Part shown: positions 1 to 14,724 of the stretch, piece after piece | Position numbering within the stretch: position 1 is the stretch's first letter | How the letters are laid out: each line of letters begins with the position of its first letter | Notes under the pieces: generated by a model | Databases searched by the model: none | What the model was told of the DNA's origin: nothing | Seen by the model: the letters and a program-made list of their open reading frames with translations, nothing else | Translations under genes and position numbers: made by a program | UHGV virus genome: UHGV-0105037 | Length of the DNA: 19,273 nt | Strand: one strand, 5' to 3' | From: a virus

Positions 1-49
1 TACAATGCGGGTTTGAGCGGCATAAATTACCACTGAAAGCCCTTAAACG

Positions 50-1063
50 TTACTCTACTGTGGACACTGTGTGGACACTCTCGGCCTCAGTACCACCTCT
101 TAGCGGATTAAGAGAAATGGCGTCCTGAAGGTACTCTGGCGCAAAATGAGCGTAAACCATAGTTTGCTCAATCCGCGTGTGACCTAGTATCCGTTGTAGC
201 GTGATAATACTTCCTCCATTAATCATGAAATGAGTGGCAAAGCTGTGCCTTAGTGCATGTGTGGCTTGCCCCATTGGCAAATCCGGTTTTATTGCTTTCA
301 TTGTTCGTCTGAAGCGAGGGTAATCAGCATCAGGGAATAAAAAACCTCGTTTGTTATCCGCGATCATTTTGGCAACAGCCTCTGAGATCGGGACGGTGCG
401 TGGTTTGTTTGTTTTCGTTTTAACAAACGTGACGCGGTTATGGATGATATTTTCTGCTTTCAAACGAGCTGCTTCTCCCCAACGTGCTCCAGTACTCAGG
501 CAAAGAATCGCAATCTTTTTGTTGTCGCCGTCAAGATCAGCAAGCAGTAAGGCAATTTCTTCCTGCGTGAGATAGCCTGTGTCTGGTTTTTCCTCCTTAA
601 GCCTTTTTGTCCCTCTGATAGGGTGCTCACCAAAGAATAACTCCGCTTCAATCAGGGCTGTAAACATGCCGCTAATACATGTTAAATCACGATTGATACT
701 CGAAGGTTTAATACCCTGACTTCTTCGGGTGGCGCAGTACTGGCTGATAAGCGATTTCGTAATTTGAAATGCGCATGGGTCATTCGTTATTTTTGTGAAG
801 ATTTCAATTTTTCCAAGATTAGATTTCCCATGCTCTTCGTGTTTACCCTTTAAATCCCACCAGATCTGTGTCAGCTCCGACAGACGTCGCTTGTCTGTTG
901 GTTTTGATAGCCATTCTTTATTGTGGTGGTTGTACAACGTGTATTTCTCGAAAGCGACAGCTTCGCTTTTCTTATCAAACTTCCTACGGATGCGTTTTCC
1001 ATTACGTCCAGTAGGGCGGATGTCCACTTCATATCGACCATCATCGAGTTTTTTGATTGCCAT
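50..1063 (-). CDS. int: Tyrosine integrase, P2 Int-like (337 aa)
   Basis: ORF translation has the C-terminal catalytic region of tyrosine recombinases (ARWGEAARL ... HALRHSFATHF ... LGHTRIEQTMVYAHF). Length and N-terminus (MAIKKLDDGRYEVDIRPTGRNGKRIRRKF) match P2 Int as I recall it. Position next to C/cox is the P2 arrangement. Confidence 0.93.
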   Translation of the reverse strand: MAIKKLDDGRYEVDIRPTGRNGKRIRRKFDKKSEAVAFEKYTLYNHHNKEWLSKPTDKRRLSELTQIWWDLKGKHEEHGKSNLGKIEIFTKITNDPCAFQITKSLISQYCATRRSQGIKPSSINRDLTCISGMFTALIEAELFFGEHPIRGTKRLKEEKPDTGYLTQEEIALLLADLDGDNKKIAILCLSTGARWGEAARLKAENIIHNRVTFVKTKTNKPRTVPISEAVAKMIADNKRGFLFPDADYPRFRRTMKAIKPDLPMGQATHALRHSFATHFMINGGSIITLQRILGHTRIEQTMVYAHFAPEYLQDAISLNPLRGGTEAESVHTVSTVE

Positions 1064-1117
1064 CAGAAAACCCTCCGAGTGGTGTGTTTTTTTGCGACTA
1101 CTAATCGCTTTTTTCGT

Positions 1118-1138
1118 GGTGGCTGAAATTTAGCCACC
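1118..1138. repeat. 7-bp inverted repeat (ggtggct-N7-agccacc) in the int-C intergenic region, preceded by a T-run
   Basis: Read directly: ggtggct at 1118-1124 and agccacc at 1132-1138; cgcttttttcg lies just upstream on the + strand. Not a canonical minus-strand terminator, because on that strand the hairpin is followed by A-rich sequence. Confidence 0.4.
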
Positions 1139-1178
1139 AATAGTAGGCACTTGTGATGAATATATTCACGATGAATTG

Positions 1179-1478
1179 TTAACCAGTCTTTTGACCGGAG
1201 TGGGGCGACGTTGTTTCGTTTTGCCCAAAGTGTGCGAGAGCGGGCGCAATTTGCCCGGACTCAGGAGCGATCTGATTGGTCATGAACCATAAAGTGTATT
1301 TGGTGAATTGTGGGGTCTGCAGGATGTTCATCATGACATCTGTTGGAGGTGTTGAACGACCACTTTCATAGTAACTCAGCGTGCCATACGGAACCCCTGT
1401 TAAATCAGCAAGTTGTTGTCTGCTCAAATACTCTGATTTTCGCATTAAGACTATCTTCTCGCTTATCGTGTTTGACAT
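1179..1478 (-). CDS. C: Immunity repressor C (99 aa, HTH)
   Basis: 99-aa ORF with an N-terminal HTH-like segment (SRQQLADLTGVPYGTLSYYESGRSTP). Size matches P2 C, and it is transcribed divergently from cox and co-directionally with int. Confidence 0.88.
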   Translation of the reverse strand: MSNTISEKIVLMRKSEYLSRQQLADLTGVPYGTLSYYESGRSTPPTDVMMNILQTPQFTKYTLWFMTNQIAPESGQIAPALAHFGQNETTSPHSGQKTG

Positions 1479-1511
1479 GGTGTTTAGATCTCAATAGTAT
1501 TTAGTTTAGAT
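1472..1511 (+). promoter_or_regulatory. Early promoter Pe with two direct-repeat C operators (O1, O2)
   Basis: Read directly: TTGACA at 1472-1477, a 17-bp spacer, then TAGTAT at 1495-1500. The 8-bp direct repeat GTTTAGAT occurs at 1482-1489 and 1504-1511, 22 bp centre to centre, flanking the -10. This matches the described P2 arrangement of two direct-repeat operators around the Pe -10. Confidence 0.6.
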
Positions 1512-1549
1512 GTAGATTGTTTAGTGCTTGGATGTGGGCACTAAAAGGC

Positions 1550-1570
1550 ATTATAAGACATTAAACGCAA
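1550..1570 (-). promoter_or_regulatory. Candidate Pc promoter (minus strand), face to face with Pe
   Basis: Minus-strand TATAAT (plus-strand attata at 1550-1555) lies between the C start (1478) and cox start (1593). No good -35 at 17-bp spacing; TTGCGT (plus 1565-1570) is only 9 nt away. Weak promoter call. Confidence 0.3.
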
Positions 1571-1592
1571 TTCATGAGGGCTAGAGGACGAC

Positions 1593-1868
1593 ATGAGCAA
1601 GCAAGTAACACTCATGACTGATGCGATTCCTTATCAGGAGTTCGCAAAACTAATAGGAAAATCGACAGGAGCGGTTCGTCGGATGATCGATAAAGGAAAG
1701 CTGCCTGTAATTGATATGACCGATCCACAATCAGCTTCAGGTCGTGCAGGTGAATATTGGGTATACCTTCCGGCATGGAATAACGGACTAAAACTGGCTT
1801 ATGAAAGCCGACCTAAAGAGATTCGTGACGGCTGGTTGATGTGGTTAGGTCTCGGTGAACCACGTTAA
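1593..1868 (+). CDS. cox: Cox excisionase / Pc repressor (91 aa)
   Basis: 91-aa ORF immediately downstream of Pe with an RBS (gagg at 1577-1580). Size and position match P2 Cox. Confidence 0.88.
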   Translation: MSKQVTLMTDAIPYQEFAKLIGKSTGAVRRMIDKGKLPVIDMTDPQSASGRAGEYWVYLPAWNNGLKLAYESRPKEIRDGWLMWLGLGEPR

Positions 1869-1878
1869 GGAGAACCGT

Positions 1879-2049
1879 ATGAATGAGCCTCGTTGTATTG
1901 CTCAGTTACTGCGTAACGAAAGCCCCAGGGCGATTGACTTCACCATCACCCACGGTAAGGGGCGTAAGGGAATCATTATCCGCACCAAAAAACAGAGTCC
2001 GTTAAAAAAGGCTCTGACCTTTCTGAAAAGCCGGAGGGTATGGAAATGA
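1879..2049 (+). CDS. Small early-operon protein (P2 orf78-like, 56 aa)
   Basis: Internal ATG at 1879 is preceded by AAGGAG (1867-1872) with 6-nt spacing, just after the cox stop. Basic small protein of unknown function. Confidence 0.55.
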   Translation: MNEPRCIAQLLRNESPRAIDFTITHGKGRKGIIIRTKKQSPLKKALTFLKSRRVWK

Positions 2050-2546
2050 CAGTGATGACGCTCAATCTCGTTGAAAAACAGCCAGCAGCTATGCGCCGGA
2101 TAATTGGTAAGCATCTTGCCGTTCCTCGCTGGCAGGATACATGTGATTATTATAATCAGATGATGGAGCGCGAACGGCTAACAGTTTGCTTTCATGCGCA
2201 GTTAAAACAGCGTCACGCAACGATGCGTTTTGAAGAAATGAACGACGTCGAACGTGAACGACTGGTATGTGCAATTGATGAATTGCGTGGGGCATTCTCA
2301 AAACGTCGTCAGGTTGGTGCAAGTGAGTATGCATATATTAGTTTCTTAACAGTCAGTCAGCGTCGTACTTTATTTATGCATGCCGGATTGACTGAAAAAG
2401 AATTTAACCAGCCATACTGGCGAATTAATGAAGAGTCATGTTACTGGCGTGATGCTTTATTCCGTGCATTACGTGAATTATTCAGCCTGTTTGAGTATGC
2501 ACCGACAATTCTGACGTCGGTAAAACCAGAGCAATATCTGCATTAA
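2046..2546 (+). CDS. B: Replication protein B (helicase-loader-like, about 166 aa)
   Basis: ORF 2040-2546; the second ATG at 2046 has GGAGGG (2033-2038) at 7-nt spacing. Size and position match P2 B. Confidence 0.82.
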   Translation: MTVMTLNLVEKQPAAMRRIIGKHLAVPRWQDTCDYYNQMMERERLTVCFHAQLKQRHATMRFEEMNDVERERLVCAIDELRGAFSKRRQVGASEYAYISFLTVSQRRTLFMHAGLTEKEFNQPYWRINEESCYWRDALFRALRELFSLFEYAPTILTSVKPEQYLH

Positions 2547-2609
2547 GTAATTAACCAGAGTTTTTAACGCACTTAATCGTGCGGGGCTTCTTTTTGCCTG
2601 GAGAAAGTT

Positions 2610-2834
2610 ATGCATACAGTTTCTGAAAATCAGTGCGGTAAATACGCATTACTGCTGCAACAGGCCAGAACCGAAGCACAGGCCGACGCTGCGACGCGCT
2701 TTTCTTCTCATCTTGATGCCATGATTCGCCACATCACAAAGGCGGAGTTATCCCGCGTGGAGATAGTCGAGCTGCTCAGTCAGGAGTCGGAAAAATTTCA
2801 CAATATCGGATTGTCTCGCGGGGAGGTGCTTTGA
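2610..2834 (+). CDS. Hypothetical early protein (P2 orf80-like, 74 aa)
   Basis: ORF with RBS ggag upstream (ctggagaaagttATG). Sits in the B-A interval, where P2 has four small ORFs with overlapping stop/start codons. Confidence 0.6.
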
Positions 2835-3136
2835 TGTCCTGTTCTCGTTCAGTTGTATTACTGAATAACGCCTTAAAAATCGCCGTTATGAAAAATGGCG
2901 ATTTGTCTCTTATTCAACTTGGTCTTGATAAAGAAAAACGCGAAATAACTGAGTCTGTTATCGCGATTTATCAGAACGAATTAAACCTCCTGTCTGATGT
3001 GGTCAATTTGCTTGTTAAACGCGCTGTGTTTCACAAGCAAATCTCCTCCGTGGATGAACTGACGAAATTAACGACAGAAATCGCCAGCTATTGCGCTGAT
3101 GAATTTAAAAACCTTAACGACAAAAGGAACTGGTAA
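2831..3136 (+). CDS. Hypothetical early protein (P2 orf81-like, 101 aa)
   Basis: Start overlaps the upstream stop (ATGA-type coupling); co-oriented small ORF in the early operon. Confidence 0.6.
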
Positions 3137-3360
3137 TGCCGGACAACGTAGATTTTATTCAGGCACAACAGGCTGAATTACTGGAGCGCCAGATTAACGC
3201 GGCAAGGGTAAAACATTGCGGTGCTTCTGCGATGGTTTGCGAAGAGTGTGACGCGCCAATACCTGCTGCCCGTCGTGCGGCTTATCCGTCAGCCACGCGT
3301 TGTGTTTCCTGTCAGTCAGTTTTTGAAGCAAAAAACAAACATTACCGGAGAACGGCATGA
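3136..3360 (+). CDS. DksA/TraR-family C4 zinc-finger protein (P2 orf82-like, 74 aa)
   Basis: Translation contains CEEC-N17-CVSC (CxxC...CxxC), typical of TraR/DksA-type zinc fingers. Start overlaps the upstream stop. Confidence 0.72.
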   Translation: MPDNVDFIQAQQAELLERQINAARVKHCGASAMVCEECDAPIPAARRAAYPSATRCVSCQSVFEAKNKHYRRTA

Positions 3361-3632
3361 GTATTCGTATTGAAATTGGCGAACGTTATGTCGTTACCAG
3401 TGACAGCTTTCAGTTTATTCTCCACGAGAAAAAGAGAGCTGAAAGCGGTAAAAACGCCGGTCAGGAATGGCTGGCGGTGGTTGGTTATTACCCGAAATTA
3501 AGCCAGCTCGTTTCCGGCCTGATGCATCACGATATTCTGACCGGAAGCGCAAAGTCTTTTGCTGATTTAAACGCGCAGGTTGAGCAACTCAGCAAGCGTT
3601 GTTCAGAGGCTTTTGGCTCATATGGCCGTTAA
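3357..3632 (+). CDS. Hypothetical early protein (P2 orf83-like, 91 aa)
   Basis: Co-oriented ORF with start overlapping the upstream stop; ends where A begins. Confidence 0.6.
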   Translation: MSIRIEIGERYVVTSDSFQFILHEKKRAESGKNAGQEWLAVVGYYPKLSQLVSGLMHHDILTGSAKSFADLNAQVEQLSKRCSEAFGSYGR

Positions 3633-5892
3633 AGCCTCCGGGCGTTTTGTCCCTCCGTCAGCATTTGCCGCAGGCACCGGTAAGACGTTTACCGGTGCTT
3701 ATGCATGGAACGCGCCACGCGAGGCCGTCGGGCGCGAAAGACCCCTTACACGTGACGAGATGCGTCAGGTGCAAGGTGTTTTATCCACGATTAACCGCCT
3801 GCCTTACTTTTTGCGCTCGCTGTTTACTTCACGCTATGACTACATCCGGCGCAATAAAAGCCCGGTGCACGGGTTTTATTTCCTCACATCCACTTTTCAG
3901 CGTCGTTTATGGCCGCGCATTGAGCGTGTGAATCAGCGCCATGAAATGAACACCGACGCGTCGTTGCTGTTTCTGGCAGAGCGTGATCACTATGCGCGCC
4001 TGCCGGGAATGAATGACAAGGAGCTGAAAAAGTTTGCCGCCCGTATCTCATCGCAGCTTTTCATGATGTATGAGGAACTCAGCGATGCCTGGGTGGATGC
4101 GCATGGCGAGAAAGAATCACTGTTTACGGATGAGGCTCAGGATCACCTGTATGGTCATGTTGCTGGCGCTGCACGAGCTTTCAATATTTCCCCTCTCTAC
4201 TGGAAAAAATACCGTAAAAGACAGATGACCACGAGGCAGGCATATTCTGCCATTGCCCGTCTGTTTAACGATGAGTGGTGGACTCATCAGCTTAAAGGCC
4301 AGCGTATGCGCTGGCATGAAGCGTTACTGATAGCTGTCGGGGAGGTCAATAAAGACCGTTCTCCTTATGCCAGTAAACACGCCATTCGTGATGTGCGTGC
4401 GCGCCGCCAGGCAAATCTGGAATTTCTTAAATCGTGTGACCTTGAAAACAGGGAAACCGGCGAGCGCATCGACCTTATCAGTAAGGTGATGGGCAGTATT
4501 TCTAATCCTGAAATTCGCCGGATGGAGCTGATGAACACCATTGCCGGTATTGAGCGTTACGCCGCTGCAGAGGGGGATGTGGGGATGTTTATCACGCTGA
4601 CCGCGCCGTCAAAGTATCACCCGACACGTCAGGTAGGAAAAGGCGAAAGTAAAACCGTGCAGCTTAATCACGGCTGGAACGATGAGGCATTTAATCCAAA
4701 GGATGCGCAGCGTTATCTCTGCCGTATCTGGAGCCTGATGCGCACGGCATTCAAGGATAATGATTTACAGGTCTACGGTTTGCGTGTCGTCGAGCCACAC
4801 CACGACGGAACGCCGCACTGGCATATGATGCTTTTTTGTAATTCACGCCAGCGTAACCAGATTATCGAAATCATGCGTCGCTATGCGCTCAAAGAGGATG
4901 GCGACGAAAGAGGAGCCGCGCGAAACCGTTTTCAGGCAAAACACCTTAACCGGGGCGGTGCTGCGGGATATATCGCGAAATACATTTCAAAAAACATCGA
5001 CGGCTATGCACTGGATGGTCAGCTCGATAACGACACCGGCAGGCCGCTGAAAGACACTGCAGCGGCTGTTACCGCATGGGCGTCAACGTGGCGCATCCCG
5101 CAATTTAAAACGGTTGGCCTGCCGACAATGGGGGCTTACCGTGAACTACGCAAATTGCCGCGCGGCGTCAGCATTGCTGATGAGTTTGACGAGCGCGTCG
5201 AGGCTGCACGCGCCGCCGCAGACAGTGGTGATTTTGCGTTGTATATCAGCGCGCAGGGTGGGGCAAATGTCCCGCGCGATTGTCAGACTGTCAGAGTCGC
5301 CCGTAGCCCGTCGGATGAAGTTAACGAGTACGAGGAAGAAGTCGAGAGAGTGGTCGGCATTTACGCGCCGCATCTCGGCGCGCGTCATATTCATATCACC
5401 AGAACGACGGACTGGCGCATTGTGCCGAAAGTGCCGGTCGTTGAGCCTTTGACTTTAAAAAGCGGCATCGCCGCGCCTCGGAGTCCTGTCAATAACTGTG
5501 GAAAGCTCACCGGTAGTGATGTTTCGTTACCGGCTCCCACACCTTCTGAGCACGCCGCCGCAGTGCTTAATCTGGTTGATGACGGTGTTATCGAATGGAA
5601 TGACCAGGAGGTCGTGAGGGCGCTCAGGGGCGCATTAAAACACGACCTGAGAACACCAAACCGTCAGCAAAGAAGCGGAAGCCCGTTAAAACCGCATGAA
5701 ATAGCGCCATCGGCCAGACTGACCCGGTCGGAACGAATGCAAATTACCCGTATCCGCGTTGACCTTGCTCAGAACGGTATCAGGCCGCAGCGATGGGAGC
5801 TTGAGGCGCTGGCGCGTGGGGCAACTGTAAATTACGACGGGAGAAGCTTCAGTTATCCTGTTATATGTGATTGGAGAGCGTATGAATTATGA
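3622..5892 (+). CDS. A: Replication initiation protein A (rolling-circle HUH endonuclease)
   Basis: Long ORF (770 aa from a TTG at 3580; first ATG at 3622 gives MAVKASGRF..., the N-terminus I recall for P2 A). Contains an HUH-like motif (GTPHWHMMLF) and paired tyrosines (AGYIAKYISK), as in P2 A / phiX174 gpA-type nickases. Confidence 0.9.
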   Translation: MAVKASGRFVPPSAFAAGTGKTFTGAYAWNAPREAVGRERPLTRDEMRQVQGVLSTINRLPYFLRSLFTSRYDYIRRNKSPVHGFYFLTSTFQRRLWPRIERVNQRHEMNTDASLLFLAERDHYARLPGMNDKELKKFAARISSQLFMMYEELSDAWVDAHGEKESLFTDEAQDHLYGHVAGAARAFNISPLYWKKYRKRQMTTRQAYSAIARLFNDEWWTHQLKGQRMRWHEALLIAVGEVNKDRSPYASKHAIRDVRARRQANLEFLKSCDLENRETGERIDLISKVMGSISNPEIRRMELMNTIAGIERYAAAEGDVGMFITLTAPSKYHPTRQVGKGESKTVQLNHGWNDEAFNPKDAQRYLCRIWSLMRTAFKDNDLQVYGLRVVEPHHDGTPHWHMMLFCNSRQRNQIIEIMRRYALKEDGDERGAARNRFQAKHLNRGGAAGYIAKYISKNIDGYALDGQLDNDTGRPLKDTAAAVTAWASTWRIPQFKTVGLPTMGAYRELRKLPRGVSIADEFDERVEAARAAADSGDFALYISAQGGANVPRDCQTVRVARSPSDEVNEYEEEVERVVGIYAPHLGARHIHITRTTDWRIVPKVPVVEPLTLKSGIAAPRSPVNNCGKLTGSDVSLPAPTPSEHAAAVLNLVDDGVIEWNDQEVVRALRGALKHDLRTPNRQQRSGSPLKPHEIAPSARLTRSERMQITRIRVDLAQNGIRPQRWELEALARGATVNYDGRSFSYPVICDWRAYEL

Positions 5893-5985
5893 GATTGTGA
5901 TAAAAAGTAAATAATTAATATAATGCAATTGCTTAACTGTTTTAAAAGGGACAACGTAGTTGTGAACTATATTGTCCCGGGAGTA

Positions 5986-7041
5986 TTAATTTTTAAATAT
6001 GGATTGTATGTATTCTATAGTGCTATCTTTAGCTCTGATGTCTTTTAAAGTGTTATTTATGAAATCTATTATTCTGTCATTACTTAATAGTGGCGATAAC
6101 GCATAACATGTTGTTGTGAATGTCATGACGTCACTAAAGCTTAGTGAAACACCTTTTGTCGCAGCGTTCTCAATCGCAAGAGACTCATCAATATCTAAGT
6201 TTGTTGCTCTTGGCCCTTTAAGGAAGATAACTTTTGAAATCCCGGATGCAGATGCTTTTGAAACGGCGTGATTAACATCTTGATAATTAAATGGTTTGTC
6301 TTTCACTTCTATAGAAAGGAAAACTATATCATCATGATATACATCTATGTCCAGTATCTCTTTTGAGGAGCTACCGGCCTGATTGACGGGATGTGCTTTT
6401 ATTATCCATCCTCTTTGTTCACCTAATAAATGTAACGAAATTGCGGCAGCAATCGCGCATGTTTCTCCATCACAAGGATGAGATATAATATTATAAATAA
6501 TCTTATGGAAATCAAAATTAATTGAGTTCGGCGTTATAACTCTATTGGTTCGCTGTAGGGTAAAATATAATGCAATAACAAGCATTTCATAAGCTAAGGT
6601 TTGGGTTGTTGCTGCATGTAATATATCAATTGAAAGTTGTTGTAAAACCTTATCATTTCCTCTGCGCACAGGGTTATCAGAGGAGTGGAGCATGTAACGA
6701 GCTGGTTTATTTAGAAATGGCTCATTTGATGCGCCTAACTTACCCTCTAAAAATGGGCCTTCTACTTTGCCTACTATTACCGAATGACATAAACTCCTTG
6801 CATCATAGGCTCCGTCTACGGGGGCATTAGCTTGTAAAGCCAGAGGGTTAACTCTAGGGTCTGTTGCTTTTGCAAGTAAACCAGTAATAAGTATATATCT
6901 GTATGTAAGGTGGGTGCCTAAAATTACATTTTGAATGGAGACCCATTGATTATTTGTTTTGTAATCAGTTAATTTTTTTGCATCGTTGATTGCATTTATA
7001 ATTACATTATAGGCTTGCTCATGATTTACTAATACTTTCAT
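5986..7041 (-). CDS. Uncharacterized 351-aa cargo protein; candidate restriction endonuclease or defence effector with a possible PD-(D/E)xK-like motif
   Basis: ORF in a visibly AT-rich segment unlike the flanking phage DNA. Strong RBS (AAGGA, 5 nt before the ATG at 7041). Its start overlaps the stop of the upstream HTH gene by 23 bp. Motif HDDIVFLSIEVKDK could be a D...(D/E)xK nuclease core. I do not recognise the family. Confidence 0.75.
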   Translation of the reverse strand: MKVLVNHEQAYNVIINAINDAKKLTDYKTNNQWVSIQNVILGTHLTYRYILITGLLAKATDPRVNPLALQANAPVDGAYDARSLCHSVIVGKVEGPFLEGKLGASNEPFLNKPARYMLHSSDNPVRRGNDKVLQQLSIDILHAATTQTLAYEMLVIALYFTLQRTNRVITPNSINFDFHKIIYNIISHPCDGETCAIAAAISLHLLGEQRGWIIKAHPVNQAGSSSKEILDIDVYHDDIVFLSIEVKDKPFNYQDVNHAVSKASASGISKVIFLKGPRATNLDIDESLAIENAATKGVSLSFSDVMTFTTTCYALSPLLSNDRIIDFINNTLKDIRAKDSTIEYIQSIFKN

Positions 7042-7333
7042 AGGTGTCCTTTAGTAAGATATCCATTGGTAGACCTAATCGGCTTGCAACCACCTCTAAT
7101 AATTCAAATAGTTCTAAAGCATCTAATCGCCTTTCAAAGCTTTCGATTTTAGATATATCTGATTGTGATAATCCTAGAAAAATGGCCAATTCTGACTGCG
7201 AAAGAGAAGCTTCTTTGCGTAGTTTGGTGAGAAGCTGGACTAGGCACCTGTATCTATGATCATGTATAGTTGGTTGTCGTTTTGCCATGTGGTTTAGAAG
7301 GTGATTGATTGTGTGTCGATCCTTACCTATCAT
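7019..7333 (-). CDS. XRE/Cro-family HTH transcriptional regulator (candidate controller protein); alternative start at 7288
   Basis: Translation contains a typical XRE HTH (LSQSELAIFLGLSQSDISKIE). Translationally coupled to the downstream 351-aa gene and divergent from the methyltransferase. ATG at 7333 gives 104 aa; the internal ATG at 7288 gives 89 aa. Confidence 0.72.
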   Translation of the reverse strand: MIGKDRHTINHLLNHMAKRQPTIHDHRYRCLVQLLTKLRKEASLSQSELAIFLGLSQSDISKIESFERRLDALELFELLEVVASRLGLPMDILLKDTYESISKS

Positions 7334-7371
7334 TGGTTTTATTCCAAAATCGAATAATTGGTGCTAAAGAA

Positions 7372-8463
7372 GTGAACAAAATTTCAGCGGTGAGCTTATT
7401 TACTGGGGCAGGAGGGATGGATGTCGGTTTCTCTAATGCCGGGTTCCGAACAGTTTGGGCCAATGATATAGATAAGGATGCATGTGATACATTTAAGCTT
7501 AATCATGAATCACCTGTTTTTTGTGGTGATATTGATGAGATGCTAAGTGAATTGTCTGGGCTGAAAAATATAGGTTGTGTTTTTGGTGGGCCTCCATGCC
7601 AAGGATTTTCTGTGGCAGGGAAAATGGACGCTCATGATCCACGTAGTAAGCTGGTTATGTCATTCATGCGGGCGGTGGATATAATTCAACCAGAATGCTT
7701 TGTTATGGAGAATGTTAAGGCTTTAGCACAGTTGTCCAAATTTGAACCAGTTAGGTGTGAACTGTTTAAGATGGCTGAAAAGTCAGGCTATCGTTCAGCC
7801 TTGCTGGTGCTGAATTCTAAAGATTTTGGCGTTCCTCAGAATAGGGAACGTATGTTTTTTATAGGGTTTCGTTCCGAAAATGATGTGAAACGAGTTGAGG
7901 CGGCGATAAAAAAATACCAATATCTTTCGCCAACAGTTGGTGAGATTATTCGGCCTTTAGGGCGAGCGGGTAATCCAAATAATTCAAGAGTCTGTAATGC
8001 AAGGATTACAAATGCTGCTAAGCCAGTATTACGGAAGTCACCTTACGCGGGAATGATGTTTAACGGGCAGGGAAGACCAATTAACCCGAATGGGTATGCT
8101 TCAACTATAGCTGCTTCTATGGGGGGGAATAGGACACCAATTATTGATGAAGAACACCTTTATGATGGCTCAACAAGTTATGTTGAGACTTATCATAATC
8201 ATCTAATGAATGGTGGTGAGCCAAAAGATATGCACGATGTACCTAGTCGTTTACGTCGACTAACGATAGATGAGGCTCTTTTGATTCAAACATTCCCGAG
8301 TAATTATGTCTTTGTGGGGAAAAATTCGTCAATTTGGCGTCAGATAGGGAATGCTGTGCCTTGTAAATTGGCGCAGGCTGTTGCTGCAGGGGTTTTGGAT
8401 GTCCTTACTGGTAAAACTATTAATGTTCAAAAGAGTCAAACAGAGTTGAGTTTGAATTCGTAA
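7372..8463 (+). CDS. DNA (cytosine-5)-methyltransferase
   Basis: Canonical C5-MTase motifs: FTGAGGMDVGF (motif I, AdoMet binding), GGPPCQGFS (motif IV, catalytic Cys), ENV (motif VI), QNRERMFFIG (motif VIII), GNAVP (motif X). The frame has no ATG before motif I; the ORF track starts at a TTG at 7309, and I prefer the GTG at 7372, which leaves a typical short leader before FxGxGG. Confidence 0.9.
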   Translation: MNKISAVSLFTGAGGMDVGFSNAGFRTVWANDIDKDACDTFKLNHESPVFCGDIDEMLSELSGLKNIGCVFGGPPCQGFSVAGKMDAHDPRSKLVMSFMRAVDIIQPECFVMENVKALAQLSKFEPVRCELFKMAEKSGYRSALLVLNSKDFGVPQNRERMFFIGFRSENDVKRVEAAIKKYQYLSPTVGEIIRPLGRAGNPNNSRVCNARITNAAKPVLRKSPYAGMMFNGQGRPINPNGYASTIAASMGGNRTPIIDEEHLYDGSTSYVETYHNHLMNGGEPKDMHDVPSRLRRLTIDEALLIQTFPSNYVFVGKNSSIWRQIGNAVPCKLAQAVAAGVLDVLTGKTINVQKSQTELSLNS

Positions 8464-8619
8464 AACGGATCACATTTTCAAACCGATGGATGCAGAATTT
8501 AACATTGCTGCATGAGTTTGCATCTTGAAATCATAAGCTGTACTGCTTAGCTTGACCAGAATTGATGTGGGTAAGAAGTGGTTATGCACCCGCATTAAAA
8601 CCGCCCCATTAAGCGGGCG

Positions 8620-8638
8620 GGCGAGGCGGGGAAAGCAC
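8620..8638. other. cos: cos cohesive-end site (P2-type 19-nt GGCGAGGCGGGGAAAGCAC)
   Basis: Exact 19-mer ggcgaggcggggaaagcac read at 8620-8638. This is the P2 cohesive-end sequence as I recall it. It sits where expected, between the end of the early/cargo region and Q, and is preceded by the palindrome ccgccc-atta-agcgggcgg. Confidence 0.6.
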
Positions 8639-8780
8639 TGCGCGCTGGCGGTGGTGCTGATTTTATTTTTTCAGCGTCTGAGCGCGTCGTGATGGCGTTT
8701 AGATTGTTCGCCGGGGCGTTGGTGTGTCTGCGGGCTGTTTTGTGCGGTGGTGAGCGTGTGAGGGCGTGATGGCGGGGTGT

Positions 8781-8802
8781 AAAAAAGCCGCCCACAGGCG
8801 GC
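8781..8802 (-). terminator. Rho-independent terminator downstream of Q (minus strand)
   Basis: GC hairpin gccgcc-caca-ggcggc (8787-8802), followed on the minus strand by a T-run (plus-strand aaaaaa at 8781-8786), immediately 3' of the Q stop (8808-8810). Confidence 0.6.
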
Positions 8803-8807
8803 GATGT

Positions 8808-9842
8808 TCAGCCGTTGTCAGTGTCCAGTGAGTAGTTTTTAAAGCGGATGACCTCCTGACCGAGCCAGCCGTTTATCTCGCGGATCCTGTCCTGTAACGG
8901 GATAAGCTCATTGCGGACAAAGACCTTTGCCACTTTCTCTATATCACCCAGCGACCCGACGTTCTCCGGCTTGCCACCCATCAACTGAAAGGGGATGCGG
9001 TGCGCGTCCAGCAGGTCAGCGGCGCTGGCTTTTTTGATATTAAAAAAATCGTCCTTCGTCGCCACTTCACTGAGGGGGATAATTTTAATGCCGTCGGCTT
9101 TCCCCTGTGGGGCATAGAGAAACAGATTTTTAAAGTTATTGCGGCCTTTCGACTTAACCATGTTTTCGCGTAGCATTTCGATATCGTTGCGATCCTGCAC
9201 GGCATCAGTGACGTACATGATGTATCCGGCATGTGCGCCATTTTCGTAATACTTGCGGCGGAACAGCGTGGCCGACTCATTCAGCCAGGCAGAATTAAGG
9301 GCGCTGAGATATTCCGGCAGACCGTACAGCTCCTGATTAATATCCGGCTCCAGCAGGTGAAACACGGAGCCGGGCGCGAAGGCTGTCGGCTCGTTGAAGG
9401 ACGGCACCCACCAGTAAACATCCTCTTCCACACCACGGCGGGTATATTTTGCCGGTGAGGTTTCCAGTCTGATGACCTTACCGGTGGTACTGTAACGCTT
9501 TTCCAGAAACGCATTACCGAACACCAGAAAATCCAGCACAAAGCGGCTGAAATCCTGCTGGGAAAGCCACGGGTGCGGGATAAACGTTGAGGCCAGAATA
9601 TTACGTTTGACGTAAATCGGTGAGCTGTGATGCACGGCAGCACGCAGGCTTTTTGCCAGACCGGTAAAGCTGACCGGTGGCTCATACCATCTGCCGTTAC
9701 TGATGCACTCGACGTAATCCAGAATATCACGGCGGTCGAGTACCGGCACCGGCTCACCAAAGGTGAATGCCTCCATTTTCGGGGCGCTGGCAGTCATTGT
9801 TTTCACCGCTGGCTGCGGTGTTTTCCCTTTTTTCTTACTCAT
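8808..9842 (-). CDS. Q: Portal (capsid vertex) protein Q (344 aa)
   Basis: 344-aa ORF next to cos on the minus strand; its start codon overlaps the P stop. Size, position and sequence match P2 Q as recalled. Confidence 0.88.
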   Translation of the reverse strand: MSKKKGKTPQPAVKTMTASAPKMEAFTFGEPVPVLDRRDILDYVECISNGRWYEPPVSFTGLAKSLRAAVHHSSPIYVKRNILASTFIPHPWLSQQDFSRFVLDFLVFGNAFLEKRYSTTGKVIRLETSPAKYTRRGVEEDVYWWVPSFNEPTAFAPGSVFHLLEPDINQELYGLPEYLSALNSAWLNESATLFRRKYYENGAHAGYIMYVTDAVQDRNDIEMLRENMVKSKGRNNFKNLFLYAPQGKADGIKIIPLSEVATKDDFFNIKKASAADLLDAHRIPFQLMGGKPENVGSLGDIEKVAKVFVRNELIPLQDRIREINGWLGQEVIRFKNYSLDTDNG

Positions 9843-11614
9843 CAGTAAAACTCCAGAATGGTGGATGTCAGCGGAGTGCTGATACCGGCGGTGAGTGGCT
9901 CATTTAACAGGGCGTGCATGGTCGCCCAGGCGAGGTCGGCGTGGCTGGCTTCCTCGCTGCGGCTGGCCTCATAGGTGGCGCTGCGTCCGCTGCTGGTCAT
10001 GGTCTTGCGGATAGCCATGAACGAGCTGGTGATGTCGGTGGCGCTGACGTCATATTCCAGACAGCTACGGCGGATAACGTCTTTTGCCTTGAGCACCATT
10101 GCAGTTTTCATTTCCGGCGTGTAGCGGATATCGCGCGCGGCGGGATAGAACGAGCGCACGAGCTGGAACACGCCGACACCGAGGCCGGTGGCATCAATAC
10201 CGATGTATTCGACGTTATATTTTTCGGTGAGTTTGCGGATGGATTCAGCCTGGGTGGCAAAGTCCATGCCTTTCCACTGGTGACGCTCAAGTATTCTGAA
10301 TTTGCCACCGGCCACCACCGGCGGTGCCAGCACCACGCATCCGGCGCTGTCGCCACGGTGTGACGGGTCGTAACCAATCCATACCGGACGTGAGCCGAAC
10401 GGATTGGCGGCAAACGGAGCATAGTCTTCCCATTCTTCCAGCGTGTCGACCATGCAGCGTTGCAGCTCCTCGAACGGGAACACCGACGCCTTGTCGTCAA
10501 CAAATTCACACATGAACAGGTTTTTAAAATCGTCGGCGCTGTTTTCACGTTTGAGCTGCTCAATGTCGAACAGCGTGCAGCCGCCTTTCAGGGCGTCCTC
10601 AATGGTGACAATCTGCCGCCACTGGCCGTCCGCACAGAGAAGCCCACCGGCAAGGGCGTTATGACTGACGTCGATTTCCACGCGCTCGGCGGCGCTGGCG
10701 CGTCCCCGGTTAAACAGTTCACCCGACCAGAACGGGTAGGCGTCGTGCGCCAGTGTGGACGGGGTGGAGAAATAGGTCGAGCGCAGGTGACTCTGTGAGG
10801 CCATACCTGATGCCACCTTACGCAGTACCTGAAAATTCGGGATCCAGAAAATCTCGTCGACGTACAGGTCGCCGTTATGGCTCTGCGCGGTGTTGGAGTT
10901 GGTGCCGAGAAAAATCAGTTTTGCGCCGTTATTGCCCAGGACAATCGGGTCACCGGTCAGGTCAACGTCAACCAGCCGGGCAAAGGCGATGATGTATTCG
11001 CGGAACACATACGCCTGCGTTTTACTGGCCGACAGAAAAATCTGGTTATGACCGGTTTTCAGGGCGCGCAGCAGCGCCTCGCGGGAAAAATAAAACGTCG
11101 CGCCAATCTGGCGGGATTTCAGGATATCGCGGATGCGGTGCTCAAGCCCGGCGCGATACCAGTGCAACTGATATTCGAAAGACTGCTCAAAGAAAATCTG
11201 CTCCAGCTTTTCGATGGCCTCGTCACTGAAAAAATTCTTTTTCGGTTTGCGCCGCCCGCCTTTGTTGCGGTTAGCGACGTTCGGATTAAGGTCTGCCTCG
11301 TTGCCGGTCTGACTGTAACGGTTTACCCGTGCCAGTCGTTCAATCTGGCGTCCGAGCAGGTCAATTTCCTTGAAGTCACCGCCAGTTTTCTGCGGTTTGA
11401 TGATGAGCTGGGTCAGCCGCGCTTCCAGACTCATTTCGACACGGCTGATGGGGGCAACGCTGTCCCAGCCGTCGCGCTGTTTCCAGCTCTGCACCGTCGG
11501 GCGTTTCATCTGCAACATGGCGGCAATCTGCGGCACGGAAAACCCCTGCCAGTACAGCAGCGCCGCCTGACGACGCGGGTCGTGTAAAAGAGTGGTGTCT
11601 GTGGTGATGGTCAT
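9842..11614 (-). CDS. P: Terminase large subunit (ATPase/nuclease) P (590 aa from ATG at 11614)
   Basis: The ORF extends to 11644, but the internal ATG at 11614 (MTITTDTTLL...) has GAGGT 4-5 nt upstream and gives the 590-aa P2 P length. Large ORF adjacent to and co-transcribed with the portal gene. Confidence 0.9.
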   Translation of the reverse strand: MTITTDTTLLHDPRRQAALLYWQGFSVPQIAAMLQMKRPTVQSWKQRDGWDSVAPISRVEMSLEARLTQLIIKPQKTGGDFKEIDLLGRQIERLARVNRYSQTGNEADLNPNVANRNKGGRRKPKKNFFSDEAIEKLEQIFFEQSFEYQLHWYRAGLEHRIRDILKSRQIGATFYFSREALLRALKTGHNQIFLSASKTQAYVFREYIIAFARLVDVDLTGDPIVLGNNGAKLIFLGTNSNTAQSHNGDLYVDEIFWIPNFQVLRKVASGMASQSHLRSTYFSTPSTLAHDAYPFWSGELFNRGRASAAERVEIDVSHNALAGGLLCADGQWRQIVTIEDALKGGCTLFDIEQLKRENSADDFKNLFMCEFVDDKASVFPFEELQRCMVDTLEEWEDYAPFAANPFGSRPVWIGYDPSHRGDSAGCVVLAPPVVAGGKFRILERHQWKGMDFATQAESIRKLTEKYNVEYIGIDATGLGVGVFQLVRSFYPAARDIRYTPEMKTAMVLKAKDVIRRSCLEYDVSATDITSSFMAIRKTMTSSGRSATYEASRSEEASHADLAWATMHALLNEPLTAGISTPLTSTILEFY

Positions 11615-11787
11615 GAATACCTCGCCGTGATGAATACACGGCAAGGCTACTGAGTCGCGCCCCGCGATTCGCTAAGGTGCTGTTGTGTCAGTGATAAGCC
11701 ATCCGGGACTGATGGCGGAGGATGCGCATCGTCGGGAAACTGATGCCGACATGTGACTCCTCTAATCACTATTCAGGACTCCTGACA
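11615..11787. promoter_or_regulatory. Divergent late-promoter region between P and O (expected Ogr-dependent promoters)
   Basis: 173-bp intergenic region between divergent late operons. Contains the inverted repeat ccatc-N7-gatgg (11699-11715) and TGT-rich sequence (tgttgtgtca, 11681-11690). I could not place an exact TGT-N12-ACA activator site. Confidence 0.35.
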
Positions 11788-12642
11788 ATGGCAAAAAAAG
11801 TCTCAAAATTCTTTCGTATCGGCGTTGAGGGTGACACCTGTGACGGGCGTGTCATCAGTGCGCAGGATATTCAGGAAATGGCCGAAACCTTTGACCCGCG
11901 AGTCTATGGTTGCCGCATTAACCTGGAACATCTGCGCGGCATCCTGCCTGACGGTATTTTTAAGCGTTATGGCGATGTGGCCGAACTGAAGGCCGAAAAG
12001 ATTGACGATGATTCGGCGCTGAAAGGCAAATGGGCGCTGTTTGCGAAAATCACCCCGACCGATGACCTTATCGCGATGAACAAGGCCGCGCAGAAGGTCT
12101 ACACCTCAATGGAAATTCAGCCGAACTTTGCCAACACCGGCAAATGTTATCTGGTGGGTCTGGCCGTCACCGATGACCCGGCAAGCCTCGGCACGGAATA
12201 CCTGGAATTCTGCCGCACGGCAAAACACAACCCCCTGAACCGCTTCAAATTAAGCCCTGAAAACCTGATTTCAGTGGCAACGCCTGTTGAGCTGGAATTT
12301 GAAGACCTGCCTGAAACCGTGTTCACCGCCCTGACCGAAAAGGTGAAATCCATTTTTGGCCGCAAACAGGCCAGCGATGACGCCCGTCTGAATGACGTGC
12401 ATGAAGCGGTGACCGCTGTTGCTGAACATGTGCAGGAAAAACTGAGCGCCACTGAGCAGCGCCTCGCTGAGATGGAAACCGCCTTTTCCGCACTTAAGCA
12501 GGAGGTGACTGACAGGGCGGATGAAACCAGTCAGGCATTCACCCGCCTGAAAAACAGTCTCGACCACACCGAAAGTCTGACCCAGCAGCGCCGCAGTAAA
12601 GCCACCGGCGGTGGCGGTGACGCCCTGATGACGAACTGCTAA
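11788..12642 (+). CDS. O: Capsid scaffolding protein O (284 aa)
   Basis: ORF from the ATG at 11788 (MAKKVSKFFRIGVEGD...). The C-terminal half is helix-rich (LSATEQRLAEMETAFSALKQEV), typical of scaffolds. Divergent from P as in P2. Confidence 0.85.
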   Translation: MAKKVSKFFRIGVEGDTCDGRVISAQDIQEMAETFDPRVYGCRINLEHLRGILPDGIFKRYGDVAELKAEKIDDDSALKGKWALFAKITPTDDLIAMNKAAQKVYTSMEIQPNFANTGKCYLVGLAVTDDPASLGTEYLEFCRTAKHNPLNRFKLSPENLISVATPVELEFEDLPETVFTALTEKVKSIFGRKQASDDARLNDVHEAVTAVAEHVQEKLSATEQRLAEMETAFSALKQEVTDRADETSQAFTRLKNSLDHTESLTQQRRSKATGGGGDALMTNC

Positions 12643-12700
12643 CCGGCGTCAGTCAGTCCGGGAAAACCTTCACGATTAACCCTTAATTTCAGGAAAAACT

Positions 12701-12871
12701 ATGCGCCAGGAAACCCGCTTTAAATTTAATGCCTACCTGTCCCGTGTTGCCGAACTGAACGGCATCGACGCCGGTGATGTGTCGAAAAAATTCACCGTTG
12801 AACCGTCGGTCACCCAGACCCTGATACGGAATTGCAGCGTAACGCGCTGGAGTGCGCAGGATGTGAGCTGA
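12701..12871 (+). pseudogene. N: Truncated major capsid gene N: first 41 or so codons, then out-of-frame fusion
   Basis: ATG at 12701 with RBS (aggaaaaact). Translation MRQETRFKFNAYLSRVAELNGIDAGDVSKKFTVEPSVTQTL matches the P2 N N-terminus, then switches to unrelated residues (IRNCSVTRWSAQDVS) and stops at 12869-12871. A full capsid protein would be about 357 aa. Confidence 0.7.
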
Positions 12872-13377
12872 TTTTTGAGGATAAAATCAGCGGCACGAAG
12901 TCCGACCGACCGGGACTGAAAAAACTGCTCAGGACATTATCGGAGGGGGATACACTGGTGGTCTGGAAGCTGGACCGGCTGGGGCGTAGTATGCGGCATC
13001 TGGTCATTCTGGTTGAGGAACTGCGCGAACGCGGCGTTAATTTTCGCAGCCTGACGGATGCTATTGATACCAGCACACCGATGGGGCGTTTTTTCTTTCA
13101 TGTGATGGGTGCCCTGGCTGAAATGGAGCGAGAACTCATTGTCGAGCGGACACGCGCCGGACTGGAAGCGGCCAGAGCCAAAGGTCGTATTGGTGGCAGA
13201 CGACCGAAACTCACCGCGAGTGAGTGGGAGCAGGCCGGGCGTTTGCTGGCTGCAGGGGAGTCACGTCAACGCGTGGCACTGATTTTTGATATTGGCCTGT
13301 CCACGCTCTATAAAAAATTTCCCTCATCAGCGACAAAGAATAAATTGTGTCATCCCTTAGCCAACCGGGACAAATAG
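12832..13377 (+). pseudogene. 5'-truncated serine DNA invertase (Hin/Gin/Pin/Cin family) lacking the catalytic N-terminus
   Basis: Translation (LQRNALECAGCELIFEDKISGTKSDRPGLKKLL ... MGRFFFHVMGALAEMERELIVERT ... GGRRPKL ... STLYKKF) is a typical resolvase/invertase from about residue 20 onward. There is an in-frame stop at 12799-12801 and no ATG near the homology boundary, so the first ~20 residues, including the catalytic serine, are missing. Confidence 0.78.
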
Positions 13378-13436
13378 CCTGACATCTCCGGCACAACTGA
13401 AAATACCACTCACCCATTAACCACGGAGTTAAACGG

Positions 13437-14003
13437 ATGAGTGACTATCATCACGGCGTGCAGGTGCTGGAGATTAACGACGGCACCCGCGTCATTTCCA
13501 CCGTATCCACTGCCATTGTCGGCATGGTCTGCACGGCCAGCGATGCGGATGCGGAAACCTTCCCCCTCAATAAACCGGTGCTGATTACCAATGTGCAGAG
13601 TGCAATTGCAAAGGCCGGTAAAAAAGGCACGCTGGCGGCATCGTTGCAGGCCATCGCCGACCAGTCAAAACCGGTCACCGTTGTCGTACGTGTGGAAGAC
13701 GGCACCGGCGACGACGAGGAAACGAAACTCGCGCAGACCGTTTCCAATATCATCGGCACCACCGACGAAAACGGTCAGTACACCGGACTGAAAGCCCTGC
13801 TGGCGGCGGAGTCGGTAACCGGTGTTAAACCGCGTATTCTCGGCGTGCCGGGACTGGATACCAAAGAGGTGGCTGTTGCACTGGCATCAGTCTGTCAGAA
13901 GCTGCGTGCTTTCGGATATATCAGCGCATGGGGCTGTAAGACCATTTCCGAGGTGAAAGCCTACCGCCAGAATTTCAGCCAGCGTGAGCTGATGGTCATC
14001 TGA
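13437..14003 (+). pseudogene. FI: Truncated tail sheath gene FI (188 codons of about 396)
   Basis: Good RBS (acggag) and start ([25 protein letters not shown]...) matching the P2 sheath N-terminus. The ORF stops abruptly at ...QRELMVI, and the downstream sequence continues as FII in another frame. Confidence 0.72.
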
Positions 14004-14392
14004 ACGGCAGCGCACCGGTAGACCTCGGCCTTGATGACGATGCGCTGTCAATGGAGTGGTCGCTCGGTGGTTTCCCGGATTCGGTTATCTGGGAGCTTTA
14101 CGCCGCAACCGGTGTGGATGCTGTGCCGATTCGTTTTGCAGGCTCTTACCAGCGTGACGATACCGGCGAAACGGTGGCCGTTGAAGTGGTCATGCGTGGA
14201 CGTCAGAAAGAAATCGACACCGGCGAGGGTAAACAGGGAGAAGACACCGAGTCGAAAATCTCCGTGGTCTGCACCTATTTCCGGCTGACGATAGACGGTA
14301 AGGAGCTGGTCGAAATCGACACCATCAACATGATTGAGAAGGTGAACGGCGTCGACCGGCTGGAGCAACACCGCCGCAATATCGGCCTGTGA
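14004..14392 (+). pseudogene. FII: 5'-truncated tail tube gene FII (C-terminal ~130 codons, no start or RBS)
   Basis: In the mod-2 frame the sequence right after the FI stop reads NGSAPVDLGLDDDALSMEWSLGGFPDSVIWELY ... EQHRRNIGL, which I recognise as the middle and C-terminus of the P2 tail tube protein. The only ATG (14051) has no RBS. Confidence 0.68.
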
Positions 14393-14399
14393 TTTTCAT

Positions 14400-14420
14400 C
14401 CGGTCAGCCTGGCTGACCGG
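14400..14420. repeat. Perfect 10-bp inverted repeat (ccggtcagcc-t-ggctgaccgg) between the FII remnant and E
   Basis: Read directly at 14400-14420. No U-run follows, so it is not a classical terminator; it may be an RNA stem-loop or a protein-binding palindrome. Confidence 0.5.
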
Positions 14421-14448
14421 TTAACCCCGATTCAGAAGTGAGAAAACC

Positions 14449-14724
14449 ATGAACAAAGAAAACGTCATTACCCTGGACAATCCGGTCAAACGTGGTGAGC
14501 AGGTTATCGAACAGGTCACGCTGATGAAACCCAATGCCGGGACGCTGCGCGGTGTCAGTCTGGCTGCAGTCGCGAACTCCGAAGTCGATGCACTGATTAA
14601 AGTGCTGCCGCGCATGACGGCACCGATGCTGACCGAGCAGGAAGTCGCCGCGCTGGAACTGCCTGACCTTGTGGCGCTGGCCGGTAAGGTGGTCGGTTTT
14701 TTGTCGCCGAACTCGGTGCAGTGA
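14449..14724 (+). CDS. E: Tail assembly chaperone E (91 aa)
   Basis: ORF with RBS (gtgagaaaacc ATG). Matches P2 gpE in size and position immediately upstream of the tape measure gene. Confidence 0.85.
   Translation: MNKENVITLDNPVKRGEQVIEQVTLMKPNAGTLRGVSLAAVANSEVDALIKVLPRMTAPMLTEQEVAALELPDLVALAGKVVGFLSPNSVQ

Follow-up and report, generated by a model that had tools for sequence, protein, structure and literature searches.

A probable 10.5-kb deletion scar joining capsid gene N to a Gin-like invertase relic in a defective P2-like prophage

Gene content and the fusion of N to an invertase gene

The window analysed here is the whole 19,273-nt stretch of the virus genome UHGV-0105037. BLAST comparison with P2 and P2-like prophages indicated that the window is a P2-like prophage, with 97-99% identity across its length. 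Read off an annotated relative, its genes followed the P2 order, int-C-cox-B-A-cargo-cos-Q-P-O-N...FI-FII-E-T-U-D-ogr, from which only the N...invertase and FI/FII intervals were absent. The genes int, C repressor, cox, B, A, Q, P, O, E, T, U, D and ogr were intact, and outside the two lesions each gene had the same length as in the intact 00-3076 prophage. Also intact was the cargo between A and cos (5986-8463), in which two minus-strand genes, one for a SacI-family restriction endonuclease of 351 aa and one for a small HTH controller of 104 aa, were found with a gene for a C5 cytosine methyltransferase of 384 aa. This restriction-modification cargo was shared by the 00-3076 and FORC_082 prophages. 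The 19-nt P2 cohesive-end (cos) sequence, GGCGAGGCGGGGAAAGCAC, occurred exactly at 8620-8638, against a chance expectation of 0.01 matches. As judged from its genes, the element is a defective prophage predicted to retain immunity and defence functions. With int, cox, A and cos intact, excision and replication may still be possible. It might be speculated that the 19-kb remnant, which retains cos and intact copies of int, cox, B, A, Q and P, could still excise and replicate, and that a helper P2-like phage could package it.

The gene for gpO, the capsid scaffold and protease (284 aa, 11788..12642, plus strand), was the final intact gene ahead of the first lesion, junction 1. Its length and position were those of the GPO coding sequence in the 00-3076 and KL53 prophages, and it was annotated as a 284-aa Phage_GPO_N product on contigs identical to the window. 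It was followed by an ORF of 56 aa (12701..12871, plus strand), which translates to MRQETRFKFNAYLSRVAELNGIDAGDVSKKFTVEPSVTQTL and then IRNCSVTRWSAQDVS before a TGA stop. This ORF comprised residues 1-41 of N, ending in ...EPSVTQTL, and 15 out-of-frame residues read from invertase DNA. The N remnant itself (12701..12825, plus strand) was delimited by positions 1-37 of the PF05125 profile and by comparison with KL53, and contained codons 1-41 and the first two bases of codon 42. A sequence-only reading of this DNA had likewise recognised the P2 capsid N-terminus up to ...VTQTL. In Pfam, the 56-aa ORF matched Phage_cap_P2 (PF05125) only at profile positions 1-37 of 327, with 29.5 bits. By this profile coverage the ORF is a fragment of the gpN gene, which would fall short of a full-length capsid fold. 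N survives solely as this fusion ORF downstream of gpO.

A megablast search with 12400-13700 gave two cleanly separated matches, which met at query position 425-427. To the left, the matches were to O and N of P2 and related elements, and to the right they were to the adjoining DNA invertase and tail sheath genes of P2-like phages, pro483 among them, and of many E. coli prophages. By BLAST, window 11380-12825 corresponded to positions 1-1446 of the intact E. coli KL53 prophage locus (L002) with 99.7% identity, and window 12824-14002 corresponded to L002 12001-13179 with 99.9% identity. These colinear flanks overlap by 2 bp (AT, 12824..12825), which a three-way alignment and the BLAST coordinates showed to be common to both parents, and the breakpoint was therefore placed at 12824/12825, inside the range of 12823-12831 proposed earlier. 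The left breakpoint lay 125 bp into N and the right breakpoint 40 bp into the invertase gene. From base 2 of its codon 14 onward the invertase gene was present, in a frame other than that of N, and 13 codons were lost. The sequence-only reading had described a fusion of N, at about codon 41, to the interior of an invertase gene in a different frame. The N codon and the frame offset were confirmed by this alignment, but the invertase point was found at the extreme 5' end of the gene and not deep within it.

From 12826, a frame reads TELQRNALECAGCELIFEDK... up to a stop at 13377. Pfam, the Gin alignment and the KL53 alignment assigned this frame (12826..13377, plus strand) to a Gin-like serine invertase pseudogene made of codons 15-197 and the stop. 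The frame covered Resolvase profile positions 17-144 of 145, so that the remaining catalytic domain was retained, and it also retained HTH_7 (PF02796, 48.5 bits). Codons 1-13 were missing from it, and with them the start codon and the Ser9 nucleophile, as was the promoter region. The full-length KL53 invertase aligned with Mu Gin (PDB 3UJ3, 4M6F) over residues 1-182 with an E value of 1.6e-94, and was about 80% identical to it as estimated by eye from the printed alignment. Its N-terminus, MLIGYVRVSTNDQN, carries Ser9, which aligned with Ser9 of Mu Gin in 4M6F; the 3UJ3 chain has Ala at this position. The Ser9 codon falls in the deleted 40 nt, which agrees with the earlier claim that the remnant lacks its catalytic serine.

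The crossover sites of the KL53 prophage were a 26-bp inverted pair (L002 9983-10008 and 11880-11905), and both lay inside the deleted interval. The whole window gave no match to the crossover consensus TTCTCNNAAACCNNGGTTTNNGAGAA with up to three mismatches allowed. No crossover site is left in the window and the tail-fibre switch is therefore gone, as had been supposed. The invertase is, on this sequence evidence, a pseudogene predicted to be untranslatable as such, a relic and not a working switch. The relic can be compared with the Gin/Cin/Pin/Hin switches of tail-fibre or flagellin genes. The complete KL53 enzyme resembles Mu Gin, and in intact relatives the invertase adjoins an H/G-G'/H' segment flanked by the 26-bp crossover sites. 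The window differs from such systems in that the enzyme lacks Ser9, start codon and promoter, and the invertible H/G segment and its crossover sites were deleted, which together would have destroyed the switch. P2-like prophages with working invertible loci have been documented in EPEC (PMC4272514).

The deleted interval and a later deletion in the tail genes

Relative to the KL53 prophage, 10,554 bp were missing at junction 1 (L002 1447-12000). The order in the KL53 prophage was N, M, L, X, holin, endolysin, lysA/B/C, R, S, V, W, J, I, H, G, inverted G'/H', invertase and FI, and the annotation of phage pro483 gave the same gene order between the breakpoints. In both, the invertase lies just upstream of FI, as the sequence-only reading had assumed, and the losses that it had listed, from about N codon 42 onward through M, L and the lysis, baseplate and tail-fibre genes, correspond to the absent 10,554 bp. 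The interval takes N from codon 42, both crossover sites and invertase codons 1-13 including Ser9. The KL53 prophage was rejected as the direct ancestor, since it differs in integrase, att site and cargo, and no intact ancestor identical in sequence to the window was found. The deleted length and content are therefore only approximate, because they were taken from the KL53 relative, which lies at another att site and carries different cargo.

Judged from its gene content, the element would no longer be able to make capsids, the small terminase M, holin, endolysin and spanins, the baseplate or tail fibres. A single step removes the capsid, lysis, baseplate, tail fibres and host-range switch, and immunity, integrase, replication, cos and the restriction-modification system are kept. 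The late-promoter Ogr dyad, TGT-N12-ACA, gave only two chance matches inside the methylase gene and none upstream of O or FI. A scan of 11500-14600 for sigma-70 promoters and terminators remained at the level of shuffled sequence.

The second lesion, junction 2 (14001..14002), lies 1.2 kb downstream of junction 1 and has a 2-bp overlap (TG) and a deletion of 764 bp (L005 11303-12066), which joins FI codon 189 to FII codon 43. The tail sheath FI remnant (13437..14003, plus strand) contains codons 1-188 and ends at a TGA stop made by the junction. The tail tube FII remnant (14003..14392, plus strand) contains codons 44-172 without its own start codon and matched positions 42-165 of 165 in the PF04985 profile. 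The contig L005 (ERZ15609685) was 100% identical to the window on both sides of junction 2 and kept the 764 bp, with an FI of 396 aa and an FII of 172 aa. Another contig, L007, has junction 1 and an FI without truncation at the junction-2 site. Junction 2 is younger than junction 1, because L005 has junction 1 yet retains the 764 bp. The later 764-bp deletion then truncated FI and FII. Junction 2 was not found in complete E. coli genomes, and neither the 10,554-bp nor the 764-bp segment was found elsewhere in the window. The modest value of the locus lies in a dated series, in which one lineage is seen in public metagenome assemblies before and after its second deletion.

Origin of the N-invertase junction

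The exact 56-aa fusion product was found by exact-protein look-up on at least eight contigs from five accessions (ERZ28596679, ERZ15609685, ERR1190732, ERR10687706 and ERZ27287786), some of which may be one biological sample assembled twice; the evidence consists of assemblies. All five loci that were retrieved matched the window with 100% identity, in lengths of up to 16.6 kb. The carriers come from ENA and Logan assemblies, and the contig names (scaffold_, NODE_, k141_, Logan) suggested different assemblers. Junction 1 occurred in two genotypes, alone (L005, L007) or together with the second deletion (L004, L006 and the window). It was not present in any of 5,426 complete E. coli genomes or in phage records, and the exact 25-nt junction pattern had no match in IMG/VR, GTDB representative genomes or JGI metagenome contigs. 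These absences suggested that junction 1, which surfaced solely through the exact-protein look-up, is confined to a rare lineage. They would also fit an assembler that had wrongly joined N to the invertase gene, the true locus being an intact prophage, and all carriers found were short-read assemblies. Such an error is, however, hardly credible for a junction that came out identical from several pipelines, as judged by contig naming, under five accessions, both with and without the second deletion. Moreover, the join shares merely 2 bp, so there is no repeat to mislead an assembler. Misassembly, which had been named earlier as the outcome that would undo the fusion, is excluded for practical purposes by the independent assemblies that share junction 1.

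We consider junction 1, with a probability of about 0.88, to be the genuine scar of a single 10.5-kb internal deletion by illegitimate joining in a prophage of the P2-like (Peduovirus) type, integrated at the yegQ(trhP)/cyaR-yegR site of E. coli. The flanks were colinear, both junctions had 2-bp overlaps and there was no IS or recombinase site, as in a minimal-homology deletion; no IS or repeat was seen at junction 1. Illegitimate recombination, independent of RecA, would have linked two unrelated points of the late region through no more than 2 bp of common sequence, possibly by template switching during replication or by end joining after a double-strand break. A 2-bp overlap arises by chance in about 1 of 10 random joins and is weakly informative, so homology-guided and homology-independent joining are indistinguishable here.

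Serine recombinases make cuts staggered by 2 bp and can act on quasi-crossover sites. The invertase itself might thus have joined a quasi-site in N to another within the invertase gene, and this would account for the overlap of exactly 2 bp at both junctions and for the invertase gene as one of the junction partners. The invertase-mediated deletion was rejected by scoring against the crossover consensus. The four breakpoints scored 2-4 of 20, below the background mean of 4.9, whereas the genuine KL53 sites scored 18-19 of 20. In addition, the breakpoint is 95-120 bp downstream of the genuine right-hand site, and the second 2-bp junction was formed after Ser9 had already been lost. We regard action of the invertase as extremely improbable, and the dissimilarity between the breakpoints and its crossover sites points to illegitimate, minimal-homology joining as the likely event. 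A join between two P2-like prophages, in tandem or co-resident, was also considered, in which case each half would have its own parent and more, or other, DNA would be missing. The identity of the window to the references is mosaic, which speaks for such an origin: 1-12825 had its nearest match in the 00-3076 prophage, in which an invertase is lacking, 12824-14002 was 99.9% identical to KL53, and from 14001 on the identity to either 00-3076 or KL53 was about 97.5%. However, mosaicism is normal in P2-like phages and need not date from the junction event, and the KL53 match also covers O and the N remnant on the left, at 99.7%. We find two parents unlikely on balance; the functions lost and the class of mechanism would be the same either way. 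Under the preferred reading of a single internal deletion, the N-invertase junction is an ordinary prophage-decay deletion that is new merely as a particular allele.

Attachment site, related remnants and deletion endpoints in FI

On the carrier contigs, the element adjoins yegQ/yegP/baeRS, and the 00-3076 prophage occupies the same site, between yegR and yegQ. In K-12, the cyaR sRNA gene overlaps the att core at its 3' end. A graded series of independently decayed P2-like elements was observed at the yegQ/cyaR-yegR site, in FORC_082 (L009), FG92-1 (L020), E308 (L111) and K-12 (L112), ranging from 24 kb with two fusions, through about 12 kb with three fusions, to the 629 bp of the K-12 element PR-X. 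The FORC_082, FG92-1 and E308 remnants share locus and phage type with the window. Their breakpoints differ: FORC_082 has fusions of O to M and of I to FI, FG92-1 has a truncated A and fusions of P to FI and of T to the ogr region, E308 has a fusion of FI to D, and none has the N-invertase or FI-FII junction of the window. The cryptic prophage PR-X of K-12 MG1655 resembles the window in its trhP(yegQ)/cyaR-yegR site, in its P2-type ogr and D sequences and in an internal deletion with a few bp of overlap. It differs in being 629 bp long, with only ogr(K) and the last ~215 nt of D (the yegZ pseudogene), whereas the window keeps 19.3 kb and 20-odd intact genes with two discrete lesions. The element in the window may represent an intermediate on the path that ends in K-12 as PR-X (ogrK-yegZ). 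The dated series, at a locus shared with this final 629-bp remnant, provides concrete intermediates for prophage domestication.

Defective P2-like prophages that keep nearly intact defence genes have been described (PMC13586616), and 'grounded' prophages decay by deletion (PMC6379469). The window is similar to the prophages of these reports in that morphogenesis is lost and the variable cargo is intact. The reports stress the loss of mobility and replication genes, whereas int, cox, A and cos are intact in the window.

A stretch of FI at nt ~566-575 (CATCTG/GCCGGA/TTTCC; window 14002) was observed to be the endpoint of at least six independent deletions in P2-like prophages, and the partners of six such deletions were FII, T, U, D, P and Q. 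The endpoint loci were window 13995-14002, L005 11300-11312, and L012, L018, L020, L021 and L111. An exact look-up with the 188-aa FI returned two deletions that leave the same FI nucleotide as junction 2, into T (L012) and into U (L018), and two independent nonsense alleles of FI codon 189, TGG to TGA (L013) and TGG to TAG (L014); this look-up was conditioned on the product, and a fixed end is expected there. Unconditioned sampling of complete genomes yielded three more deletions, with endpoints 2-9 nt away. In L005 coordinates, P was joined to FI from 11309-11312 in FG92-1, Q was joined to FI from 11309 in F247, and FI up to 11308-11310 was joined to D in E308. We also counted complete-genome records with high-identity partial matches in 120-nt windows. 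The FI site window had about 10 partial records, compared with about 0-4 in three control windows, namely about 1 for FI control A, 1-4 for FI control B and 0 for the N breakpoint; these counts are per record and not per lineage, and low-identity matches were assumed to be diverged homologues. At the N breakpoint window, 0 of 1505 complete-genome records were broken, and N was rejected as a recurrent site. For the invertase breakpoint window, diverged paralogues confound the count in complete genomes. A scan of IMG/VR for FI-site variants (GCTGATGGTCATCTGH) gave 89 matches, and none of the 80 returned loci, which were checked, lay in an FI context. No common motif was found among the partner breakpoints.

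The clustering of FI endpoints is suggestive of a deletion hot spot. A competing element's nuclease that cuts CATCTGGCCGGATTTCC, or a strong topoisomerase site, could be the cause of an FI break. The decay of P2-like prophages would then perhaps be non-random and seeded by a recurrent, site-specific break in FI, of which junction 2 would be an example, and large lesions such as that between N and the invertase could have arisen in the repair of a similar attack; we hold this proposal to be doubtful. The FI endpoint clustering, if real, would be of more interest than the N-invertase junction.

At its left edge the window begins 31 nt into the attL repeat, and its right edge coincides with the ogr stop codon, the att repeat having been located at L001 1436-1470 and, in K-12, at L112 5175-5209. 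In these limits, the window looks like a predicted provirus that was trimmed to gene boundaries.
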